A DNA stretch of 64,000 nucleotides from a virus. Under the pieces are notes generated by a model. That model was given only the letters and a program-made list of their open reading frames with translations. It made no database searches and had not been told where the DNA came from. Where the stretch lies: IMG/VR virus record IMGVR_UViG_3300046314_000658, one strand, 5' to 3'. The position numbers and the translations under genes are program-made. This document shows positions 1,715 to 37,553 of the stretch, in pieces. Position 1 is the stretch's first letter. Each line of letters opens with the position of its first letter.

Positions 1715-2655
1715 TTACTTTTTGGTGGCTTTGAAGGGGGTCATACCACCCGTCGCTGCGTTAACATTAACTTCGTTCCACCCTGGCTGATATTGGCCTT
1801 CTTTCAACTCGCTCATATTTTGCATGATGCAAGTTTGTAGTGCACTAATGTTTGCTGCGCGCTGACCAGAGAATTGTCGAGTGACGAATACGTTTTGCAC
1901 AGCCAGGCTGTTGTTGTTATATACCGCAATGTTTTTGTAGTTCAGTGCTTTCACTTTATACGGCTCGCTGATTGGGGCGTCAAACGGAACCATTGTTAGG
2001 CCAGATGATTGAGTGAGTGTTTTCACTGTACCAGAAGGCCATCCACTTACCGTAAATGCGGCTGCAACCTGACCTTTTTTAACCATTTCAAATGCTGCGC
2101 CATCATCCTTGGCATCAACGAACTGCATACCATAACCAAACTGTTTGTCAAGACGTCGACCAAGCAACTGTGCAGAACCTACTAGAGCAACTGGTTTACC
2201 ACGTAGTTCAGAGAAGCGGTTAATTACAACTGTTTGTGCTTTGCCTTCCATAAAGCCACCAAACTTCTTTTCACCTTGAATGATAAAGCCTGCAGATGAC
2301 GTGATGACGTGCAGATAGTTGTTATTGACCGGAAGGATCGATTGCAGCGCAGCGATATTGTCATCACCAGTCTTCATATCTGTCCACGTATCCACTTGGA
2401 CAAACCCTACATCAGCTTCCTTAGTGGAAAGTGAGGTGAGATTGTCTAGACCACCTGCTGTGGTTACCTCACATAGATTTACTTTAGCGCCACAGACTTT
2501 GGCAACATCGGCAAACAGCAGTGAAAATCCCTTGCCTTTAGGGCCAGTAGCTACCTTGATGCCTTCACATTCAGCAGCAGGTGCACCATCAGCTGGAGCA
2601 GCCGATGCATTAACAGCAAACGCTACTAGGGCGGCAAGTACGATTGATTTTTCAT
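1715..2655 (-). CDS. TAXI/TRAP-type periplasmic solute-binding-like protein; ATG is out of frame by one base in an A5 run
   Basis: Frame continues upstream of the ORF-track start as KSIVLAALVAFAVNASA (signal peptide)...IKVATGPKGKGFS...TTAGGLDNL...ADVGFVQVD; ATG at 2655 is followed by only 5 A. Confidence 0.7.
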
Positions 2656-2667
2656 ATAGATTCTTTC

Positions 2668-2805
2668 TTAGAGATTAAACTTGGTTTGATGTTGATTGGG
2701 AATAGGTTGAATAATAGGACCATCATCCTTCGCGAATACAGCATATAGAATGACTGCAACAAACATTGCAGATGCTACATATTTGAATAGTTTGTAAAAA
2801 TCCAT
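2668..2805 (-). CDS. 45-aa single-TM membrane protein (MDFYKLFKYVASAMFVAVILYAVFAKDDG...)
   Basis: Translated by hand; CAGGA SD; below ORF-track cutoff. Confidence 0.55.
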   Translation of the reverse strand: MDFYKLFKYVASAMFVAVILYAVFAKDDGPIIQPIPNQHQTKFNL

Positions 2806-2865
2806 TTGGATCCTGGTGTTGTTAAGGTAAGTTGATTATGACTGAAGTTGAAATTGGGTTCAACC

Positions 2866-3291
2866 CTAACAGAGAGCGAAGTCATTTCGAGCGAGGTCTT
2901 TCAACCTCCAATCAATCGCGTTCCACAGAACATTATCACCCCAGTTGTAGTTGTCCTCGATGTTCCACACAATTTGCTTTCGCACGATATCATCTTTATA
3001 ACCAACTGCTTCAAACTCTCTATGCGCTTGGAGTGCATTTTCAGCATTCATAAAAATAATGTGATCAGCCCAATTGATTAAGTTGCAACTCAATGGGATC
3101 AACGCAATGTTAACTGCACTCCCACAAGCACGTGCATTGTATCCGTGACTAGATGCAACCATTTGTGCAGTTGGGCTACGAAGCATTCCGACTGAGCAGA
3201 CAAACAGGAGCCTCTTAGCTGATGTTTGACTGCTGTTATCGTACGGACACCGATCACTAAAGATCTGCTGTGTTTTGGTTTGCTTCACCAT
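2866..3291 (-). CDS. Low-molecular-weight protein tyrosine phosphatase-like protein
   Basis: LLFVCSVGMLRSPTA (CX5RS P-loop), WADHIIFM, IED. Confidence 0.85.
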   Translation of the reverse strand: MVKQTKTQQIFSDRCPYDNSSQTSAKRLLFVCSVGMLRSPTAQMVASSHGYNARACGSAVNIALIPLSCNLINWADHIIFMNAENALQAHREFEAVGYKDDIVRKQIVWNIEDNYNWGDNVLWNAIDWRLKDLARNDFALC

Positions 3292-3295
3292 CAGA

Positions 3296-4426
3296 CTAGT
3301 CTTTCATTTTCGACAAATATAAATTTGAGATTGCTTTCCAGGTGAACCGCTTGCGAGAGTTGGCCTTGAATACAAGTCCTTCACGGTTTACGGTTGGGTT
3401 GATCAGAGACTTGCCATCAGCCATTTTGATAACATCGTCGATCGTCTTGTCACCAAACGTCCAGTTAGCATCGACGAGCGGAGCTTGTGTGAAACCATAC
3501 TTTGCTGCAAATTCTGCACGCTCAGTGGGATCCATATAGCGCCCCCCTTCATTAGGCAACTGCACATCAAATAGACGGAACTCGTGCTTATTCAACTTAT
3601 AATGATTTTGCTGGACGCCTGGCCCAATTAATTCAAATTGTACAGCGATGTCTTGACCAAATTCACGTAGTTTTTGCTCTACGCCCAAAGCACGAGCAGT
3701 ATCCCAAAAGGTATTTCCTTCTGTTTCCTTTAGATCAAGATTTCGCGAGCACGTACCAAATTCTCCATCCAAAATATAACAGGTAGTGGACGACCCTTCA
3801 CACTTCTCTTGCACTTCGTATGTTTCCGCTTGAAGCACGCCGTTGGCAAACGCACGGGTCAGATTTTGGATGCGTTCCTGATCAGTTTTCACAATTCGAG
3901 ACGGAAAGTTACCACGAGCCATACCAGCGAGTTGGGCGGAGACTGGTGCTTCCCACTTTTGAATGCCAAGCACGTCTGTCACGTCATCACCTTCAATAAC
4001 AAATCCACCCATAGGGTTGCCACAAAGTTCAACCATCTTGTCAGTTACCACTTTTACAGGAAGCAGCAAACCCTGGGAGATTTGCCCCTTCAACCTGATA
4101 GTTCGCAGCTTTTCACCATCAACACCGTTGTACGTCTTCGGAAAGTGACCGGGCTTCGTCAAGAACGGAGCAAGAGTATTTGGGATGAAGCTGTCAATTT
4201 CAAAATATGCCGCAAGCGAGCCGACAGAAAATTCCCCTTTTTTCACCACTACGTCCCAGTTGAGAACCCGTGCAACCTCGATGTTATCTGCACCTTCAAT
4301 AGGTGAGATGGAGACGATTTTTTGAATTGTGGCGAGCTTGCGGAAGCGCACTGCTTCGGCGATCGTTTGGCCTTCTGCATTGAGCAGTTCTGCAGCGGGG
4401 GTAGATGTAATATTGATTTCTGTCAT
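3296..4426 (-). CDS. RNA ligase, DRB0094 family
   Basis: RKLATIQKI..ISPIEGADNIE N-terminal domain; KTDQERIQN; motif I EKCEGSS; REGLVFK; WKAISN. Confidence 0.9.
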   Translation of the reverse strand: MTEINITSTPAAELLNAEGQTIAEAVRFRKLATIQKIVSISPIEGADNIEVARVLNWDVVVKKGEFSVGSLAAYFEIDSFIPNTLAPFLTKPGHFPKTYNGVDGEKLRTIRLKGQISQGLLLPVKVVTDKMVELCGNPMGGFVIEGDDVTDVLGIQKWEAPVSAQLAGMARGNFPSRIVKTDQERIQNLTRAFANGVLQAETYEVQEKCEGSSTTCYILDGEFGTCSRNLDLKETEGNTFWDTARALGVEQKLREFGQDIAVQFELIGPGVQQNHYKLNKHEFRLFDVQLPNEGGRYMDPTERAEFAAKYGFTQAPLVDANWTFGDKTIDDVIKMADGKSLINPTVNREGLVFKANSRKRFTWKAISNLYLSKMKD

Positions 4427-4540
4427 ATAAAACCTTATTGATAATTGTTGTGGTGATATAATATAGCCACTATTGGATTTTGATATAGTAAGTAATTATT
4501 ATCAATGTTAGTAATGTTGGGTTCAAGCGCGTTGGGGGTT

Positions 4541-4702
4541 CTACTCAACAACCCATTCTTGATATTCACGCCACTCGAAGGCAGTAGATTTAAATTCGTC
4601 CTTCCAAACAAGTGCTTCTACCTCATCCGCAAAAACTTTCCATACTTCCTTAAAAATGTCGCAGGAGTCGTAGTAACAAGTATACCCAATATAGACTATC
4701 AT
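4541..4702 (-). CDS. 53-aa hypothetical protein (MIVYIGYTCYYDSCDIF...)
   Basis: Translated by hand; ATGA overlap with the upstream gene's stop. Confidence 0.55.
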   Translation of the reverse strand: MIVYIGYTCYYDSCDIFKEVWKVFADEVEALVWKDEFKSTAFEWREYQEWVVE

Positions 4703-4914
4703 TTAAAATATCCCTCTGTTGGATGAGCTTTTACAATACCAGGGTTCGGAAACCCGCCAAAACCTTCACACGGACTGTCAACGTTGACACTCTTGGGAGT
4801 AAATCCATAGTTTACTTCAACGTATTTGACAATTTCAACTAACGTAGGATCAACACCATCGAATACGAGCGTGACCCAACCATCGAGGTAATTTTTACTA
4901 CTATCGTAAATCAT
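4699..4914 (-). CDS. Hypothetical protein
   Basis: ORF in a tight operon; AAGGA SD before MIYDSS. Confidence 0.6.
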   Translation of the reverse strand: MIYDSSKNYLDGWVTLVFDGVDPTLVEIVKYVEVNYGFTPKSVNVDSPCEGFGGFPNPGIVKAHPTEGYFK

Positions 4915-4918
4915 GGTG

Positions 4919-5128
4919 TTATCCTTTGATTCCAAATTCGATCATAATATCGTCAGCAATGTCTTCATAGTCATCTTCACTAACACCAGGGTTGCTACTG
5001 AAATAGCTGTACCCCTCCATCTCCCGCGTGTGCTTTGCAATCACTGCAACAATACGCTGGCGAACAGCAAACTCTTCTGGTGTCATCTGAGCACTTTCAG
5101 GGCACCCTGGGTTAAACCATCTTGCCAT
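4919..5128 (-). CDS. Hypothetical protein
   Basis: AGGAG SD; downstream of a consensus sigma70 promoter. Confidence 0.65.
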   Translation of the reverse strand: MARWFNPGCPESAQMTPEEFAVRQRIVAVIAKHTREMEGYSYFSSNPGVSEDDYEDIADDIMIEFGIKG

Positions 5129-5159
5129 TTCTCACTCCTGTAATCGTGTTGGTGAGGTA

Positions 5160-5188
5160 ATTATATACCCCTTTTCTCGCAATGTCAA
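5160..5188 (-). promoter_or_regulatory. Sigma70-type early promoter
   Basis: TTGACA-17 nt-TATAAT, perfect consensus. Confidence 0.85.
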
Positions 5189-5192
5189 CCTA

Positions 5193-5603
5193 TTAATTCT
5201 TGTACAAAATAGCTTGCTGAGGATACGTTTGACCGAGTTGAGTGGGAAGCAAAATTCGCTGACCGCTAACTTCATACTCAACGTACGTATTGTGGACGTC
5301 TACAACGGTTGTTGTTTTACCACTTGAACGCGACTCCCGATGACCTTCAGCAACAAACCCGGCAAGTGTACCAACTACCTGTGTATTCGAATATACCTTT
5401 GGTTCTTGATTCGTCCACACATACGAAACACAATAAACAAACCCAAGGATAGCTGCAAGGATCAGTGTAATTCCGAACACACTCAATTCTTCCTCTTTCG
5501 CACGATATAGTGCAGATAACCAAACTAACACAGCAGGAATCGCTATCAAAAAGAAACCGAGGTGGTTAATTTGTTCTGTAGGGATCGGTGCAAAAGTATA
5601 CAT
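5193..5603 (-). CDS. Two-TM membrane protein with C-terminal beta domain
   Basis: Two hydrophobic helices followed by a soluble beta-rich region. Confidence 0.65.
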   Translation of the reverse strand: MYTFAPIPTEQINHLGFFLIAIPAVLVWLSALYRAKEEELSVFGITLILAAILGFVYCVSYVWTNQEPKVYSNTQVVGTLAGFVAEGHRESRSSGKTTTVVDVHNTYVEYEVSGQRILLPTQLGQTYPQQAILYKN

Positions 5604-5659
5604 TTCTCGTGTCCTATTTGTTTGTCAATAGGATTATTATACCCCACTAACTCAAAAGG

Positions 5660-5950
5660 TCAACGACGCATCTTTGCTGTATCAGTTGCTGCTTCTTTGC
5701 TAAAGACAGGCACAAGATTGCTTTTATGCATTGTTGCAATGCCTACGATAGCAGACCCGCTGTATTGTGGCGATGGTTTCAGTGCAGTCGAGCCACCTGG
5801 CGTGGATACACTCCGGTAAGTCTGCGTGACACGCACACCTGTACTGGTATCAACTGTTGTCCACGGCTTTATTCCAGACGGAACAGGCCCCTTTCCATAG
5901 CGCTGGACTTTTACTGGCTTGACTTTTGGTGTGTAGTCAATCTTTTTCAT
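5660..5950 (-). CDS. Conserved hypothetical phage protein
   Basis: GIATMHKSNLVPVF motif, recalled from T4-like phage hypotheticals. Confidence 0.7.
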   Translation of the reverse strand: MKKIDYTPKVKPVKVQRYGKGPVPSGIKPWTTVDTSTGVRVTQTYRSVSTPGGSTALKPSPQYSGSAIVGIATMHKSNLVPVFSKEAATDTAKMRR

Positions 5951-5971
5951 GTAAACAATTCTAATAGCAAA

Positions 5972-6601
5972 TTACAGTAAAATATTATCAGTGCGGCTGG
6001 GGAACGGATCTCTGGATGGAGGGCGATACACAGGATTAAAATTAGATTGCAATTGATATCCTTTACGCGTCCAATTAGACAAGTAGAAGGTGTTGGGCGT
6101 AGTAGTGGAAGCTATGTCACCTAACCAGATGTGTTGCTTACCCATACCTTCCCAAGGGTTGATGGTGAAGCTATTTGCATCACTGCCACCAGCATCTTTG
6201 TAATGTTGATACATTGTTAACAATACAGACCGTTTGAACGCTCGCACCTTACCAATGGCACCACCAGTTGCATTGGAGAATTCGTTACTAACAAATATCC
6301 AATAGTCTGCTGTTGATAGTTCGATGCCAGATGGACGATGTACGCCTGCACGATCCGCTTTGCTTTGGCGATACTCAACCTGTAGTAACTTACGGAACTG
6401 GCATTTAACTTCGAAAGTCAACCCAGCATCCAAGTCTTTGAAGTCATATTCTGGGTGGTACCCATTACGTCCAATAGGTTGATCAATATTTGTCATACCC
6501 AGCAGCCCAGCCAAGGCAGCCTCAACTTGATTACTATACCGATAGTGGGCAAGTGGATCTGCAGGATTTTCCGTATACAAGAGAGAGTGTTCGACAATCA
6601 T
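5972..6601 (-). CDS. PD-(D/E)XK nuclease-like protein
   Basis: YDF...FEVK core plus SGIELSTADYWIFV motif. Confidence 0.6.
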   Translation of the reverse strand: MIVEHSLLYTENPADPLAHYRYSNQVEAALAGLLGMTNIDQPIGRNGYHPEYDFKDLDAGLTFEVKCQFRKLLQVEYRQSKADRAGVHRPSGIELSTADYWIFVSNEFSNATGGAIGKVRAFKRSVLLTMYQHYKDAGGSDANSFTINPWEGMGKQHIWLGDIASTTTPNTFYLSNWTRKGYQLQSNFNPVYRPPSRDPFPSRTDNILL

Positions 6602-6619
6602 ATTATGACAATAAACAAA

Positions 6620-7150
6620 TTAAAAACGCTGTGATGGATGGTCAGGACCTTGATACTGCTGACGGCTTCCACTTTGTTGTTGAGTATCAGGAGATACGGA
6701 AATTACGACAGGAATTGTGGGACCAGGTTGGTAATTCAATACAGTCGAACTGGTGTAACCTTGAAATGTGTATGTAACCCGATATCCCCTAATCCGCTCG
6801 GCAACGCTATCTGGCTCGCACTGCTGTTGGTACTGGTTGCTGGTCGTTGGCTGACCCGAACCCCACACTGCTCCAATTCCTGCACCTAGAGCAGTTGCGG
6901 CAAGTTTACCATCACCTTGACCAACTTGACTCCCAACTGCACCACCTACGATACCACCAAGAATCGACATTCCGGTATTATTCTGCGGTTGCGGCTGACC
7001 AGGTACTTGATAGCAACGACCAGGCTGGCGAATTTGCTCCATCATTGGTTGAACATTCATAACCTGTGCAACATCGCGAGTGACGATCTGTTGAGCAAGT
7101 GCTGATGTAGCTAACACACTAACAACTAAGGCGGTGGCAATTCGTTTCAT
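6620..7150 (-). CDS. Glycine-zipper 2TM (YcfJ-like) exported protein
   Basis: Signal peptide; GGIVGGAVGSQVGQGDGK..ATALGAGIGA; GYRVTYTFQG. Confidence 0.85.
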   Translation of the reverse strand: MKRIATALVVSVLATSALAQQIVTRDVAQVMNVQPMMEQIRQPGRCYQVPGQPQPQNNTGMSILGGIVGGAVGSQVGQGDGKLAATALGAGIGAVWGSGQPTTSNQYQQQCEPDSVAERIRGYRVTYTFQGYTSSTVLNYQPGPTIPVVISVSPDTQQQSGSRQQYQGPDHPSQRF

Positions 7151-20532: not shown

Positions 20533-20550
20533 TATTTAGTCACATAAATA
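20533..20550. promoter_or_regulatory. Back-to-back divergent late promoters
   Basis: tatttag (CTAAATA on minus) and cataaata (plus) at the strand switch. Confidence 0.65.
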
Positions 20551-20574: not shown

Positions 20575-21528
20575 ATGAAATTCTCACAATATTTATCTGA
20601 AGGCATTCGAGCAGCAGATTTCGAAAAGGCTGTTGGCACGATTGTTCAATATCTGCAAAAACAACTGGGTACAATGTATCGGTATCCACAGATTGAGCAC
20701 TACAGTGGTTCACAGGGTCAAGGGATTGGGTTGCGATATTTTCTGCAAGATGGCACTAGCTTGCGTTTCAATTGGACTTCAACGTCTGCATCTTCCAAGC
20801 TAGATTCGATCTCAATTTGGGATGGTTCGTCTCGTCACCCTAATTTCCAGATTCGTGGTATTGGGGATGTGCCACTTGGTCAACTGTCACTCGCAAAGAT
20901 CCTCCCAACACTTGCTCAAACTATCAAAAATCCAAAAGTTGGTGAAGTTGAGTTGTCTACACAAGAGTCAATCAGCGTACTGGCTGATTTGGATACCCAA
21001 CTATCCGAGAGCGTGTTGAACGAAGATGCATTCGATGATGTCGTCGGGGCGCTTGAACAAGGTGCTGTATCTGGCTACACATTCTCAAAGATGGGCCGTA
21101 ACCAAGAGCGTATCTTCAAAGAGATTCTAGCTGCTCATAAAGACGAGTTTGAAACCAAGGTCGATGGTGCTGGACGTCAACGGTACACATTCACAGGCGA
21201 GCTCGGCGAAATTAGCCGGGATGATATCGTGGGCAATGTAGTTGGCAACCAACAAAAGAGTGGTCGTCTTGGACTATCCGTTTCAGTCGGCGGTAACGAG
21301 AGCACAACAACAGATGGTGAAGATGCTGCAGCAAAGCAGTTCCCAGGTGCGCCAGCTCGGGTACCGTACGAAGAGCAGTTGGATGATATGAAGTCAATCA
21401 TCAATGCTGTTGTGAAAGGTGCGAGTAACTTCTCTGTGATATTAGGAGCTGGTGGACTTGGTAAATGTGCAAGTTCTGCGGTGTTATTGAATGGATCATT
21501 TAAAAACTGGGAAAAATCCCTCGCCTAA
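20575..21528 (+). CDS. AAA+ ATPase N-extein plus 20-aa split intein IntN
   Basis: Ends VILGAGGLGK|CASSAVLLNGSFKNWEKSLA*; Cys1 codon at 21466. Confidence 0.8.
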   Translation: MKFSQYLSEGIRAADFEKAVGTIVQYLQKQLGTMYRYPQIEHYSGSQGQGIGLRYFLQDGTSLRFNWTSTSASSKLDSISIWDGSSRHPNFQIRGIGDVPLGQLSLAKILPTLAQTIKNPKVGEVELSTQESISVLADLDTQLSESVLNEDAFDDVVGALEQGAVSGYTFSKMGRNQERIFKEILAAHKDEFETKVDGAGRQRYTFTGELGEISRDDIVGNVVGNQQKSGRLGLSVSVGGNESTTTDGEDAAAKQFPGAPARVPYEEQLDDMKSIINAVVKGASNFSVILGAGGLGKCASSAVLLNGSFKNWEKSLA

Positions 21529-21608
21529 AATACTTGCAGCCATTATCCATAAATAGTACTATTAATATACAGCAGCTAGTTCGCTGCATATATTTTTAGG
21601 GACTAACA

Positions 21609-22925
21609 ATGAATGTTACCAACACCAAGCGCAAGAGCAAACACGAGCAACACACTACCGTCATACAGACGATCAACACTCCCGATCAGTTACTCGAATA
21701 CGCATTTGCAAAAGAGTTTCTCAATAGGGGAGATTGGAAGGGTTGGCACCCAGATGTAAAACAGCGTGCATTGCAGCTACTTGAGCTACCAGAGTGTAGT
21801 ATTACGAATTTTAATCTCAAAGTTCGGTTTGATGTACTAAATCCGAATCGCACTGCAAAACCAAATAACGTCGAACATTGGATCAATCGAGGTTGGACCG
21901 AAGCAGATGCAATGCTGCACATCAAAGCTATGCAAAAAGCTCGCAACAATAAAAAACAAGAAATGTTAACCCCCGAATACTGGGTACGAACTGGGTTGAC
22001 TCTACAGGAGGCGCAACAGAAAGCTGATGATTGTAGATTCGGTAATACAGCCAGGCGACCAGAATATTGGATTAAACAAGGTATGTCTGTAGACGAAGCA
22101 AAGACGAAAGTATCTCAACACCAAAGCGCACACTCTCCTAAAACAGTTGGATATTGGACTGCGCAAGGGTTAACAGATGAACAAGCTACTAATAAAGTGT
22201 CAGAAGTGCAAACCAGTGCAGCAGCAATTGCAAAGCAGAAATGGAAGGATGGATTAATCGACAAAGCCACTCGTAACACCAATCTTGAATATTGGATCAA
22301 GAAAGCAAATGGTGATAAATTGCGAGCAAGAAAGTTGCTACGAGAGCGGCAGAGTACGTTTTCATTAGAAAAGTGTATAGCTACGCATGGAGAATTGAGG
22401 GGGACCCAAATGTGGGAACAACGACAAGAGAAATGGCAGACTACGATGCAGTCAAAGCCCCCCGAGGAGTTGTTGCGGATATCTAGAGCAAAGCAGGTGC
22501 GTGGGAATGGGTTGCGATATGGTGTGGTATCACAACAGCTGTTCTGGGAGGTATTTAATATCACCCAACCTCTGGGGTATGCTATTTATTTTGCTGAACT
22601 TGATCAAAAAACGAAAGTAAAAGCCATTCAAGGTAATCATGAATTTGTAATGTTCTGCGATGATGTGGTATATCGTCCGGATTTTTACATACCAGACATT
22701 GGCGTGTGGGTAGAGTTTGATGAGAAACATCACTGGGGGTGTACAGCAGCAAAAGCAAGCGACGTAATTAGAGAGACTAATATTAAACGAGTATTGAAAG
22801 ATGTCACATTCATTCGCATCAAAGAAACAGAATTTGCAGACAATCCAGAAGATTGTGTGACGAAAATAGTTGATGTGATCTTAGCAAAACATCTCCAATA
22901 CGAAGCAGCTCTCCAACAAGACTAA
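21609..22925 (+). CDS. Free-standing Vsr/DUF559-like homing endonuclease inside the fractured ATPase gene
   Basis: Repeated (E)YW..G.T..EA helical repeats; YRPDFY...VEFDEKHHW...D..R...FIRIKE nuclease domain. Confidence 0.75.
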   Translation: MNVTNTKRKSKHEQHTTVIQTINTPDQLLEYAFAKEFLNRGDWKGWHPDVKQRALQLLELPECSITNFNLKVRFDVLNPNRTAKPNNVEHWINRGWTEADAMLHIKAMQKARNNKKQEMLTPEYWVRTGLTLQEAQQKADDCRFGNTARRPEYWIKQGMSVDEAKTKVSQHQSAHSPKTVGYWTAQGLTDEQATNKVSEVQTSAAAIAKQKWKDGLIDKATRNTNLEYWIKKANGDKLRARKLLRERQSTFSLEKCIATHGELRGTQMWEQRQEKWQTTMQSKPPEELLRISRAKQVRGNGLRYGVVSQQLFWEVFNITQPLGYAIYFAELDQKTKVKAIQGNHEFVMFCDDVVYRPDFYIPDIGVWVEFDEKHHWGCTAAKASDVIRETNIKRVLKDVTFIRIKETEFADNPEDCVTKIVDVILAKHLQYEAALQQD

Positions 22926-22954
22926 ATACACGATACTACACTTCTACTACCACT

Positions 22955-24037
22955 ATGGATACTACTGCATTGAAACTTGAGACCAAATCGTTTGGTGAAC
23001 TGGCCGACCTAATTAAGCAACATCTCAATATTACAGAGTTAGAACTGAATAGACTATACGACATTCGCAAGTTCGAGTGGACTGTTCAGGATCATAACGA
23101 TACTCCTATTCCAATTATTGGACTAATTCGCAAGCATAGTAAAGCAATTGCTTTTGAATTCAGCGATGGTAGTGAAATTATTACTTCCACCCACCACCTA
23201 TTTGCCACTGACGATAGGTGCGATGTTACATTTGCTGCAGAGCTAGCGGTTGGTGATAGTATTACCAAAATTAGTGGTGAAAAAGTTACAGTAGTATCAG
23301 CAACTGCGCTACCAGAGCAAGATGTGTACGACATCCAAGTTAAGTCTCACAAGATGTTGTATCGCGATGCAGCTGGTTTTGTGCACCACAATACTCATAC
23401 TGTTGAAGAAACACTTGGAGAACTTGGCTTAGAAGACGGGAATGGATACTTCAAAAACACATCGAGCGGCTCTGCAGCTGGATTGTACAAGACTCTATTC
23501 ATGAACCGTACTGGCATTGTGGTGTTAGATGACTGTGATACGATTGTTGCCACACAAGAAGGTCGCAATCTATTGAAGGCTGCACTAGACACCAAAAAGA
23601 AACGGAAACTCGTCTGGGCAAAAATGGGTTCTTGGTTGTTTGACCCAGCTGATGAAGAGGAGATGGCAAAGGCACAAGACTCCATCGCGGTTGGTGAAGA
23701 ACCAGAGATGTTCCCACGATACTTCGACTTTGAAGGTCGTGTGATTATGATTAGCAACTTACCAGCAGAAACACTTGATCCAGATGGTGCACTAGCCACG
23801 CGCGGATTCATCATCACATTAAATCCAACGAAGGATGAAGTGTTTGCATTCATGCGTAAAATTGCACCGAAAATCCCCGTTGAAGGTCGTCAACTAACTG
23901 ATGCTGAGCGTAATGAAGTTGTTGATATGCTTGAGAAGCAATCTGGTACCGCCAATATTCGAAAATTAGTTCGAGGTCTCAATATGTGTGCCAGTGGGAC
24001 CCCTAATTGGCAAAGAATTGTCGAGCGTTATTGCTAA
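22955..24037 (+). CDS. Split intein IntC (146 aa) plus AAA+ ATPase C-extein
   Basis: STHHLF (block B), VYDIQV (block F), HHN|T junction at 23392; then VVLDDCD Walker B, FEGRVIMISN sensor I, ALATR arginine finger. Confidence 0.85.
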   Translation: MDTTALKLETKSFGELADLIKQHLNITELELNRLYDIRKFEWTVQDHNDTPIPIIGLIRKHSKAIAFEFSDGSEIITSTHHLFATDDRCDVTFAAELAVGDSITKISGEKVTVVSATALPEQDVYDIQVKSHKMLYRDAAGFVHHNTHTVEETLGELGLEDGNGYFKNTSSGSAAGLYKTLFMNRTGIVVLDDCDTIVATQEGRNLLKAALDTKKKRKLVWAKMGSWLFDPADEEEMAKAQDSIAVGEEPEMFPRYFDFEGRVIMISNLPAETLDPDGALATRGFIITLNPTKDEVFAFMRKIAPKIPVEGRQLTDAERNEVVDMLEKQSGTANIRKLVRGLNMCASGTPNWQRIVERYC

Positions 24038-24040
24038 AAT

Positions 24041-24066
24041 AAAGGACCAAATGCTGGTCCTTTTTT
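24041..24066 (+). terminator. Rho-independent terminator
   Basis: AAAGGACCA-loop-TGGTCCTTTTTT. Confidence 0.75.
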
Positions 24067-24156
24067 GTTGCACTAGTATGCAACTATCATAAATAGAAGT
24101 GCGAGCCACGATGTACCACCATCCGCTCGCTCTAATGCTAACAAGGAGCAATCAGC

Positions 24157-35858: not shown

Positions 35859-37553
35859 TCAACAATCTGGCAACCATTCATATACACTTGTACCACAGTC
35901 CCAGAATCTATCAAACTTATTCTCTAACATATTCTCGTATAGTGTTTTTTGCTCGTCGAACTTTGGAACAACATCTGCTATATTTGCTTTTGTAAATTTA
36001 TTAGGAGAACACAAAAATGGTGTCTTAGATGCTGTGCTAAAATAGTAACCAACTGGTGGAGTAGTGCGAACTAGTTCAAACCCACTTTCCCTCGCATACT
36101 GTTCAGGTAGTCGTCTATCAGTCTGGTGAATAACTTTCACAATGCTATGTTGCTTACAGAAAGATGATATTAACTGTCGCAATAAGCCTGGAACATAAGT
36201 GTCTGTTGCATATGAAAAATTATCAATTCTGACTATATTATTATCAATACCACTCAACGCGAGTGCAGCGATTAACTGCCGATTAACTCGAACTCCATAG
36301 AAATATTTAGATTGATTAGAAATTCCAGTTATAGCGTTCTCTGTAAAAAACCAATCAGCATCTCTTCTGGATATTGGATATGCAGCACAGTCATTTACGT
36401 CATACTTGATTGGAGATAACTCCAATGCACGCTTAATTAAACTCTCAGTTGCAGAACGGTGGTAATACCAATCTGGTTCTAATATTTGGAGCAGTGTGTA
36501 CCCACTTTTCTCACACAATTGGGTTTTTAGTAGATGTTTATTTCTACCAACGTGAGATTCCCGATGCCAATATAACCCGTTGTATTCAATTGCTATGTGT
36601 TTAGTTGGTATTACTATGTCCAATTCATATGGATGTATAAGTGATCGATTGGATACTTCACACGGAACAAGCGAGTTTACAAAATTGGCAATTTCAATTT
36701 CAGCAGATGAGCGGAATTGATCCTTGCGAATTGAGATCCTGTGCTGATTCAAATACTTTAAAACTGTTGTATCCGATACCTCTCCGTGTAACAAGTATGT
36801 AGCGATGTGAGTGGAAGATAATGTTTGATTTGTATACGCATTTGTCATCCACTCAACATTTTCCAATTTCGCCATAACTTCAAGTGATATGTGTCTCTGA
36901 GACAGCGTTCTACCACCATTTTCTAATCTAGTGTTAGCTTCAATTGCATCCTGTATGTCAACACTTTGAAATGGAAAATCATGACCGTAACGAGATTGTC
37001 TTGTTGCAAGCTGTTTTGCTTTAACATCGGGTAATAATGCAGTAGATGTTACACCGTACTTTTCAAAAGTATTGTCTCGTACTTTCTGTTGAATTTTATC
37101 ACTTTGAAATGGAGTTGCAGACCCGTATCGTTCTATACAGGTTGCGTGTTGCTTTGCACGAATAGTAGGAGATAGCCCAGCAGATTTTACCCCATACTTT
37201 TTAATCATAGTCGCTTCTTTACGCGACTGCGTTTCAGGAGAGGCTTGTGCACACTTACGACCACAAAATGGTTTATACCCCTGCATTCTGCTAGTGAATT
37301 TAACTGAAAGTTGATTGCAATGCTTACATTTTACAAGTTCGGTGACACCGTGTTCTAATGCATGTATGCGTTGGTCATTGCGTGCATGCGGGCCGAGGAA
37401 TGCTGTTCTATCAATGTACGCGACCCACCAATCTGGCAACACTGGATGGTGTCGAGTCCAATGCTCTACAAGTTTTCCATTTATACGCCCGTCTGGTTTA
37501 AGAATTCCAGAAAGTTTTAAGTGATCCATAAGCTGCTGGTCAGTGAATATCAT
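35859..37553 (-). CDS. Putative homing endonuclease (KYGV repeats, PD-(D/E)XK domain, degenerate GNAT-like C-terminus)
   Basis: CKHC..FCGRKC; KYGV/RYG repeats; ELDIVIP..IAIEYNGLYWH; RFWDCG. Confidence 0.75.
   Translation of the reverse strand: MIFTDQQLMDHLKLSGILKPDGRINGKLVEHWTRHHPVLPDWWVAYIDRTAFLGPHARNDQRIHALEHGVTELVKCKHCNQLSVKFTSRMQGYKPFCGRKCAQASPETQSRKEATMIKKYGVKSAGLSPTIRAKQHATCIERYGSATPFQSDKIQQKVRDNTFEKYGVTSTALLPDVKAKQLATRQSRYGHDFPFQSVDIQDAIEANTRLENGGRTLSQRHISLEVMAKLENVEWMTNAYTNQTLSSTHIATYLLHGEVSDTTVLKYLNQHRISIRKDQFRSSAEIEIANFVNSLVPCEVSNRSLIHPYELDIVIPTKHIAIEYNGLYWHRESHVGRNKHLLKTQLCEKSGYTLLQILEPDWYYHRSATESLIKRALELSPIKYDVNDCAAYPISRRDADWFFTENAITGISNQSKYFYGVRVNRQLIAALALSGIDNNIVRIDNFSYATDTYVPGLLRQLISSFCKQHSIVKVIHQTDRRLPEQYARESGFELVRTTPPVGYYFSTASKTPFLCSPNKFTKANIADVVPKFDEQKTLYENMLENKFDRFWDCGTSVYEWLPDC

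Follow-up and report, generated by a model that had tools for sequence, protein, structure and literature searches.

A putative atypically split intein in the ATP-binding loop of a T4-like phage ATPase

The DNA analyzed here is a stretch of 64,000 nucleotides (nt) from the IMG/VR virus record IMGVR_UViG_3300046314_000658, referred to below as the window. It belongs to a T4-like phage in which a P-loop ATPase is encoded as two genes, with the break lying within the ATP-binding loop. The most probable reading, to which we assign a probability of roughly 0.8, is that of a "fractured gene": a mobile class-1 intein would occupy the Walker A motif at GK/T (a slash marks a splice junction throughout), would have been cut by a nuclease gene at the position known as S1, and would be removed by trans-splicing of its two halves. 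The features on which this reading is built, namely intein-less alleles, 72 relatives, profile matches to solved inteins and a fold match with Z scores of 13-15, amount to far more than chance would produce.

Gene layout and exact insertion point

The locus consists of three consecutive genes on the + strand, separated by spacers of 80 nt and 29 nt. The first open reading frame, ORF1 (20575-21528), encodes 317 amino acids (aa) and has the C-terminus ...VILGAGGLGK/CASSAVLLNGSFKNWEKSLA*, in which Cys298 follows GAGGLGK directly, at the place where intein-less alleles have Thr. ORF2 (21609-22925, 438 aa) is a free-standing gene that separates the intein halves. In ORF3 (22955-24037, 360 aa), residues 1-146 are intein sequence, with block B at T78-x-x-H81, block F at D126 and block G ending in H144-H145-N146/T147, after which the protein continues with THTVEETLGELGLEDGNGYFK... 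up to the Walker B motif IVVLDDCD. The original prediction had ORF1 ending in GAGGLGK/C plus 19 aa, ORF3 carrying blocks B, F and G up to HHN/T, and Thr+1 (T147 of ORF3) in use; all of these residues were confirmed in the translated frames. The parts of the locus, including the N-terminal and C-terminal intein pieces (IntN and IntC), are as follows.

20575-21465, + strand: 297-aa N-extein of the P-loop ATPase, with Walker A GAGGLGK at its end; corresponds collinearly to residues 1-297 in the intein-less alleles L004 and L005
21466-21528, + strand: predicted IntN, Cys1 plus 19 residues (CASSAVLLNGSFKNWEKSLA), stop codon at 21526-21528; carries a residue pattern common to its relatives
21609-22925, + strand: probable homing-endonuclease gene for a 438-aa protein with five YW-type helical repeats ahead of a Vsr/DUF559-like nuclease domain
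22955-23392, + strand: predicted IntC of 146 aa that comprises helix alpha1 and blocks B, F and G and has HHN at its end; identified by fold model and invariant residues
23393-24037, + strand: C-extein, 214 aa plus stop codon; Thr+1 completes Walker A, followed by Walker B IVVLDDCD and a putative helical lid

A scan of IMG/VR with ORF3 identified two loci, L004 and L005, that match only residues 147-360 of the protein, at 87-90% identity. At both loci the ATPase is a single uninterrupted ORF of 511 or 513 aa that runs from an ORF1-like N-terminus to an ORF3-like C-terminus and reads ...GAGGLGKTHTVEETL...; the junction region is unbroken (...ILGAGGLGKTHTVEETL...), and both Walker motifs are present. 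The window, L004 and L005 share the same two neighboring genes upstream of the ATPase. Since the gene is uninterrupted in these alleles, the 1927-base-pair (bp) insert of the window (21466-23392) sits exactly between the Lys and Thr codons of Walker A, and exactly in frame. A more distant homolog of the ATPase, found in a 642-kb uncultured megaphage, is likewise uninterrupted. Conceptual splicing of ORF1 and ORF3 yields a Walker A of the form GxxxxGK[ST] (GAGGLGK/T) followed by IVVLDDCD, as had been predicted, and removal of the 20 + 146 residues at the protein level would therefore restore the sequence that the sister alleles encode directly. The anatomy and the exact insertion point are thus established.

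A GIY-YIG-like ORF was observed just downstream of one intein-less allele (L004:5771-6280; Pfam E 5.7e-4, just under the cut-off). A different free-standing nuclease may therefore occupy the neighborhood of the ATPase when the intein is absent.

The same three-gene layout was found in L009 (ENA, a 320-kb contig), in L010 and L011 (Logan) and in L006-L008 (JGI), which establishes its recurrence. At L006-L008, the nuclease gene and the IntC gene are separated by two genes on the minus strand. The closest relative of the intein is at L006 (JGI Ga0456305_000001, 221 kb; locus 2350-7071), where IntC is 55% identical and IntN consists of only 14 aa (CLDPNSELAGVFGE); the intervening genes there, at 4761-5363 and 5376-5924, have no assigned function. 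The parent record of the window is a metagenomic virus record of 139 kb that is judged about 52% complete, and a faulty assembly, or a chimera made from two phage variants, was considered as an explanation of the broken gene. The same junctions are, however, present in the independent ENA, Logan and JGI assemblies, an identical nuclease protein is recorded from 6 contigs, and the insertion is exactly in frame, so that an artefact is scarcely credible.

The conservation of the locus was assessed from the ratio of nonsynonymous to synonymous substitution rates (dN/dS) between the window and L009, where the N-extein is 94% identical. Values of 0.034 for the N-extein, 0.035 for IntC and 0.037 for the C-extein were obtained, and the nuclease gene gave 0.126. 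The constraint on IntC thus equals that on the enzyme that it interrupts, which is expected if splicing is needed for function.

Removal of the insert as an intron at the RNA level, or joining of the halves by read-through or frameshifting, would also give an intact ATPase, and Vsr-like homing-endonuclease genes of the same family do reside in group I introns as well (PMC2677866). A search of 21300-23500 against Rfam at E<=1 returned no group I intron and no other RNA family. ORF1 and ORF3 are in different frames (starts at 20575 and 22955), and the flanks of the nuclease gene encode bona fide intein blocks. At L006-L008 the opposite-strand genes between the halves exclude joining on a single transcript or by read-through. 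Joining at the RNA level is accordingly very improbable.

Intein fold, split site and the N-terminal piece

The identity of IntC was examined with a family profile made from ORF3 and 19 relatives, and with an AlphaFold2 model of ORF3. The profile matched the solved inteins gp41-1 (E 8.9e-9) and VidaL (E 1.8e-7). The model, which has a mean predicted local distance difference test score (pLDDT) of 86.9, shows the HINT fold; it matched gp41-1 in Foldseek (E 1.7e-7) and about 28 inteins in VIA-align with Z scores of 13-15. In terms of conservation, K60, H81, D126, G141, H144, H145 and N146 of IntC are invariant in 20 relatives, and the set H81, D126 and H145-N146/T147 is invariant or nearly so. 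The catalytic set of a class-1 intein is complete, with Cys1, block B His81, block F Asp126 and His145-Asn146/Thr147. The locus therefore combines a first-residue nucleophile, blocks B, F and G with Thr+1, the HINT fold and an exact in-frame insertion, and the fold and the conservation are, like the layout, established.

The position of the split was read from the same alignments. Residues 5-7 onward of the ORF3 model align with residues 12-17 onward of complete inteins, and residue 3 falls on residue 17 of VidaL, which directly follows the 16-aa IntN of that intein (Z 14.1). Helix alpha1 corresponds to ORF3 residues 13-24 and is part of IntC, while strands beta1 and beta2 form the portion that IntC lacks. 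With an IntN of 20 aa and an IntC of 146 aa, the split falls after strand beta2 and before helix alpha1. Because IntC aligns from the first residue of VidaL IntC, the split is of the S1 type (VidaL, PolB16) and not of the S2 type (AceL-TerL). The original prediction had placed the split just after block A; the likeness that it drew to AceL-TerL did not stand, since AceL-TerL is split at S2. The start of ORF3 (ALKLETKSFGELADLI) was also considered as a duplicated block A. This was rejected, as contiguous members of the family carry both segments serially and the segment forms helix alpha1 in the model.

Like the IntN of its relatives and the start of contiguous family members, the IntN of the window has Cys1 and hydrophobic residues at positions 8 and 12 (here L8 and F12). 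Most members also have a hydrophobic residue at position 10, where the window and L006 have Gly. Only about the first 12-14 of its 20 residues align with relatives; the last six to eight, without a counterpart in L006 (14 aa) or L012 (12 aa), probably form a tail that is free of constraint. A piece of 20 aa is not record-short, since VidaL has 16 residues and PolB16 has 15. For the window's own IntN-IntC pair, the agreement is at the level of sequence pattern.

The relative at L012 (Logan SRR32162517 contig, 4065-6080) carries an ATPase of the same family with an intein that is 36% identical to that of the window. Here the ATPase is split three residues earlier in the P-loop (GGAGG/TGKT), so that two insertion points three residues apart (GK/T and G/TGKT) are found in orthologous P-loops. 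IntN consists of 12 aa (CFCLDTELDIIE), which is shorter than any characterized natural IntN (15 aa), and it is followed by a TAA stop codon, a 12-nt gap and the IntC gene, all in one frame and without a nuclease gene. Among close variants, natural IntN lengths are graded, at 20, 16, 14 and 12 aa. The L012 precursor was folded as one chain with its TAA stop read as Gln, purely as a folding device. The resulting model aligns with inteins from their residue 3, and the best match was VidaL (Z 17.5; root-mean-square deviation 1.8 A; 133/145 residues). The model is support, not proof, that the 12-aa IntN would complete the intein fold in this relative, because the local confidence over the IntN is low.

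Nuclease gene, host enzyme and expression signals

ORF2 is a probable member of the Vsr-like PD-(D/E)xK / DUF559 homing-endonuclease family. Its own match to Pfam MTES_1575 is below the curated cut-off, and membership is rated as probable for this reason. DUF559 and/or MTES_1575 were detected, at E-values down to 9e-9, in 11-12 of the 16 aligned sequences of the nuclease family, ORF2 among them, and the family-invariant residues D358, E369 and E406 are present in ORF2. A search of the PDB with the single ORF2 sequence found nothing; a match to the catalytic domain of I-Bth0305I (3r3p; E 1.1e-3) was obtained with the family profile only. The N-terminal two-thirds of ORF2 contain five repeats of the form xEYWxxxGxxxxEA, which matched no Pfam family, and over its whole length the protein is 41% identical to its L006 counterpart. 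At L013:3731-4990, the nuclease gene between the halves has the same YW repeats followed by a different C-terminal domain that has no Pfam match. This combination suggests a modular make-up of DNA-binding and cutting parts. Elsewhere in the window, at 35859-37553 on the minus strand, a second gene for a mobile nuclease was observed; it encodes a 564-aa HNH-type homing endonuclease (phrog_3339, E 4e-68).

The host enzyme was compared with known ATPases. A model of the C-extein (ORF3 residues 148-360) matches the AAA+ ATPases MCM, RFC, RuvB and MoxR at Z scores of only 6-7.5. ORF3 matches phrog_1250 (E 2.3e-18), which PHROG annotates as "unknown function", and the uninterrupted allele matched only AAA_16 in Pfam, at E 1.9e-3, which is below the cut-off. 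The T4-like character of the phage is evident from other genes of the window, including rIIA, a DnaB-like helicase, a baseplate hub with lysozyme and tail fibers. In GenBank phage sequences, no match was found for the 3.5-kb region as DNA or for the ORF1 protein. The N-terminus of the ATPase (MKFSQYLSEGIR..., window 20575-20610) is conserved in L001, L004, L005 and L006, and presumably resembles the capsid-targeting leaders of T4.

The motif TAAATA was examined as a possible expression signal, and it probably represents the core of the late promoters of this phage. It occurs within 70 nt upstream of 20 of the 51 long ORFs of the window, mostly 19-29 nt before the start codon. The rate upstream of ORFs is about 28 times that inside them, where only 11 copies were counted in 53.6 kb, and over the whole window its strand bias follows gene orientation (35 minus, 16 plus). 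We take the motif to resemble the T4 late promoter TATAAATA. On the + strand between 20400 and 24100 it occurs only four times, at 20545, 21550 and 22923, before ORF1, ORF2 and ORF3, and at 24090, before the next ORF. The expectation that each piece has its own TAAATA motif thus holds, with one before each of the three genes, and both halves would be co-expressed late in infection. The signals around the three genes are listed below.

20545-20550, + strand: TAAATA, late-promoter-like motif 24 nt before the ORF1 start
21550-21555, + strand: TAAATA before the nuclease gene; the surrounding CCATAAATAGTA(C/T)TATTAATATA is conserved in L009, L010 and L011
21572-21597, + strand: weak terminator-like hairpin of 5 bp of G+C followed by the T-rich run ATATATTTTT, between the ORF1 stop codon and the ribosome-binding site of the nuclease gene
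22923-22928, + strand: TAAATA overlapping the nuclease stop codon, 26 nt before the IntC gene start
24041-24073, + strand: strong hairpin resembling an intrinsic terminator, 9-bp stem and T run, just after ORF3

As the sequence around the second motif is conserved in L009-L011, this motif probably moves together with the nuclease gene. Ahead of the IntC gene of L006, the corresponding position is occupied by TATAAATAG. In L011, the same place before the nuclease gene holds a hairpin whose sequence differs, and the hairpin at 21572-21597 may serve as a terminator or in translational control of the nuclease gene.

Proposed mechanism and place among known inteins

Several observations weigh against trans-splicing in a fractured gene. 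The main weakness is the IntN, which is only 19-29% identical to those of L011 and L006, compared with 55-66% for IntC, with an identity of 85% between the window and L009. It also has A5-V6 where a start of the form C-x-x-x-[DN]-[TS] is usual. Over the IntN region of L012, the read-through model has a pLDDT of only about 35-50. The nuclease assignment of ORF2 itself rests on marginal E-values (1.1e-3), and ORF3 has no obvious Shine-Dalgarno sequence.

An alternative is that the intein halves are splice-dead, either serving as a non-covalent docking pair that holds the ATPase pieces together or accompanying an ATPase that is dead in these phages. The poor conservation and atypical sequence of the IntN would fit docking alone, and there is a precedent for intein-derived interaction domains that assemble a fragmented enzyme without splicing (PMC3045599). 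Docking would not, however, require Cys1, His81, Asp126, His145, Asn146 and Thr+1, which are kept in every relative, and an unspliced complex would keep about 166 residues between the GK and the T of the P-loop, an arrangement expected to block the binding of nucleotide. A dead ATPase is contradicted by the low dN/dS values reported above (0.034-0.037): both exteins are under strong purifying selection, and the gene is therefore not dead. Loss of splicing is thus an unlikely explanation, and trans-splicing remains the preferred one.

In the mechanism that we infer for this locus, which covers the association of the halves, their splicing, the activity of the nuclease and the timing of expression, a free-standing homing-endonuclease gene would have cut the intein at S1, just after the second beta-strand. 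The three genes would each be expressed from their own late-promoter-like TAAATA. The N-piece (297-aa N-extein and 20-aa IntN) and the C-piece (146-aa IntC and 214-aa C-extein) would then associate, with the first 12-14 or so residues of IntN supplying the strands beta1-beta2 that IntC lacks. Splicing would follow the four standard steps, which are an N-S acyl shift at Cys1, trans-esterification to Thr+1, cyclization of Asn146 and an O-N shift. Splicing is predicted to give a 511-residue ATPase whose GAGGLGKT loop is intact, as in the protein encoded by the uninterrupted alleles of related phages. The nuclease would most likely cut intein-less alleles at or near GGACTGGGTAAG/ACTCAC, which would lead to the homing of the whole 1.9-kb cassette.

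The arrangement was compared with known systems. Four natural atypical split inteins have been characterized, namely AceL-TerL, GOS-TerL, VidaL and PolB16, with IntN of 15-37 aa (PMC13014065, PMC10189870, PMC11766414). In the S1/S2 nomenclature, VidaL and PolB16 OarG are split at S1, and AceL-TerL and GOS-TerL at S2, after helix alpha1 (PMC13014065). VidaL (PDB 6vgv/6vgw; 16-aa IntN; Neugebauer 2017 and Burton 2020, as cited in PMC13014065) is similar to the window intein in its natural S1 split after beta2, its short Cys1 IntN and its long IntC. It differs in that the structure-based identity is only about 16-21%, and in that VidaL ends ...SH- in the HMMER alignment whereas the window intein ends HHN/T. 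Splicing has been measured for VidaL and is predicted for the window intein.

PolB16 OarG (15-aa IntN; PMC10189870; PDB 8cpo) also has a natural S1-type split and a very short IntN, and matches structurally at Z 10.6-12.4. It is a more distant relative, it is cysteine-less (Ser1/Ser+1), and its host is a PolB polymerase rather than a P-loop protein. AceL-TerL (25-aa IntN) and GOS-TerL (37-aa IntN) resemble the window intein in being natural, phage-derived and equipped with a short IntN in an ATPase host, the large terminase (PMC11766414, PMC13014065). In contrast to their S2 split after alpha1 and their Cys+1, the window intein keeps alpha1 in IntC and uses Thr+1. The pairing of Cys1 with Thr+1 is itself known among inteins, e.g. 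Mxe GyrA (PMC11766414).

The fractured genes described by Dassa, London, Stoddard, Schueler-Furman and Pietrokovski in 2009 (PMC2677866) have the same layout as the locus reported here, with a Vsr-like nuclease gene between the halves. Likewise, the locus has two genes that each encode one extein and one intein part, and a free-standing nuclease gene between them. Control elements appear to travel with the nuclease gene in those fractured genes (PMC2677866). Nearly all of their inteins are split canonically (IntN 88-105 aa, IntC 33-54 aa), and only the terminase locus is unusual among them. The phrog_1250 ATPase host lies outside the eight kinds of enzyme for DNA synthesis and repair that are described in the abstract of that paper. 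In terms of the nuclease, I-Bth0305I (a Vsr-like EDxHD homing endonuclease, PDB 3r3p, PMC3239194) has an N-terminal DNA-binding part and a C-terminal nuclease, and ORF2 appears to be organized likewise. The match is marginal, and ORF2 differs in being free-standing rather than intron-encoded and in its five xEYWxxxGxxxxEA repeats. Lopsided split inteins of the S1 (VidaL) type are thus already known, and it is well supported that what is new here is a member in a new host gene.

To determine how widespread this kind of intein is, IntC alone was searched against 1.84 billion representative proteins at E<1e-3, and 72 representatives were recovered. Block G ends in [HNS]HN in 69 of them, followed by Thr (59 members), Ser (9) or Cys (1). 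Of these 69 proteins, 59 begin with the intein part, indicating that they are split likewise, and 10 have it internally. The members that were inspected have the junction inside a Walker A loop; usually it follows GK, and in seven it precedes [ST]GK. Among the host proteins are Clp-type AAA proteins, RecA, DnaB, SF2 helicases, PhoH and ABC ATPases. P-loops are recognized as a hotspot for inteins (PMC4760082), and S1-split inteins of this kind are common in phage metagenomes. In P0004 (305 aa), the Walker B motif "DDSDS" is followed by CDGDTIIDTVEYGKIKISELY..., a segment that looks like the N-terminal part of a second intein, located at Walker B in the same ATPase family.

We propose tentatively, and at somewhat less than even odds for the proposal as a whole, that these members form a large S1-split clade of at least 59 clusters at 50% identity. 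Such a clade would be specialized for Walker A loops across unrelated P-loop NTPases, at two sites three residues apart. Its mobility would come from free-standing nucleases of modular build whose point of entry is S1 instead of the canonical endonuclease site, and its IntN would extend down to 12-14 residues, below those of any characterized natural split intein. No description of this clade as such was found in the literature.

The locus leaves the known mechanism of splicing unchanged. Natural split inteins with a short N-terminal piece are sought for protein ligation and labeling because the short piece can be made by peptide synthesis, and the locus contributes a Cys1/Thr+1 member with an exactly known native junction. 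Its intein-less sister alleles define the spliced product and the likely homing site, and the natural IntN variants of 20, 16, 14 and 12 residues can be compared directly. For the biology of these phages, the locus provides a clean example of a free-standing nuclease gene that breaks an intein and thereby an ATPase gene, and it points to the ATP-binding loop as the shared target of a whole family of phage inteins.

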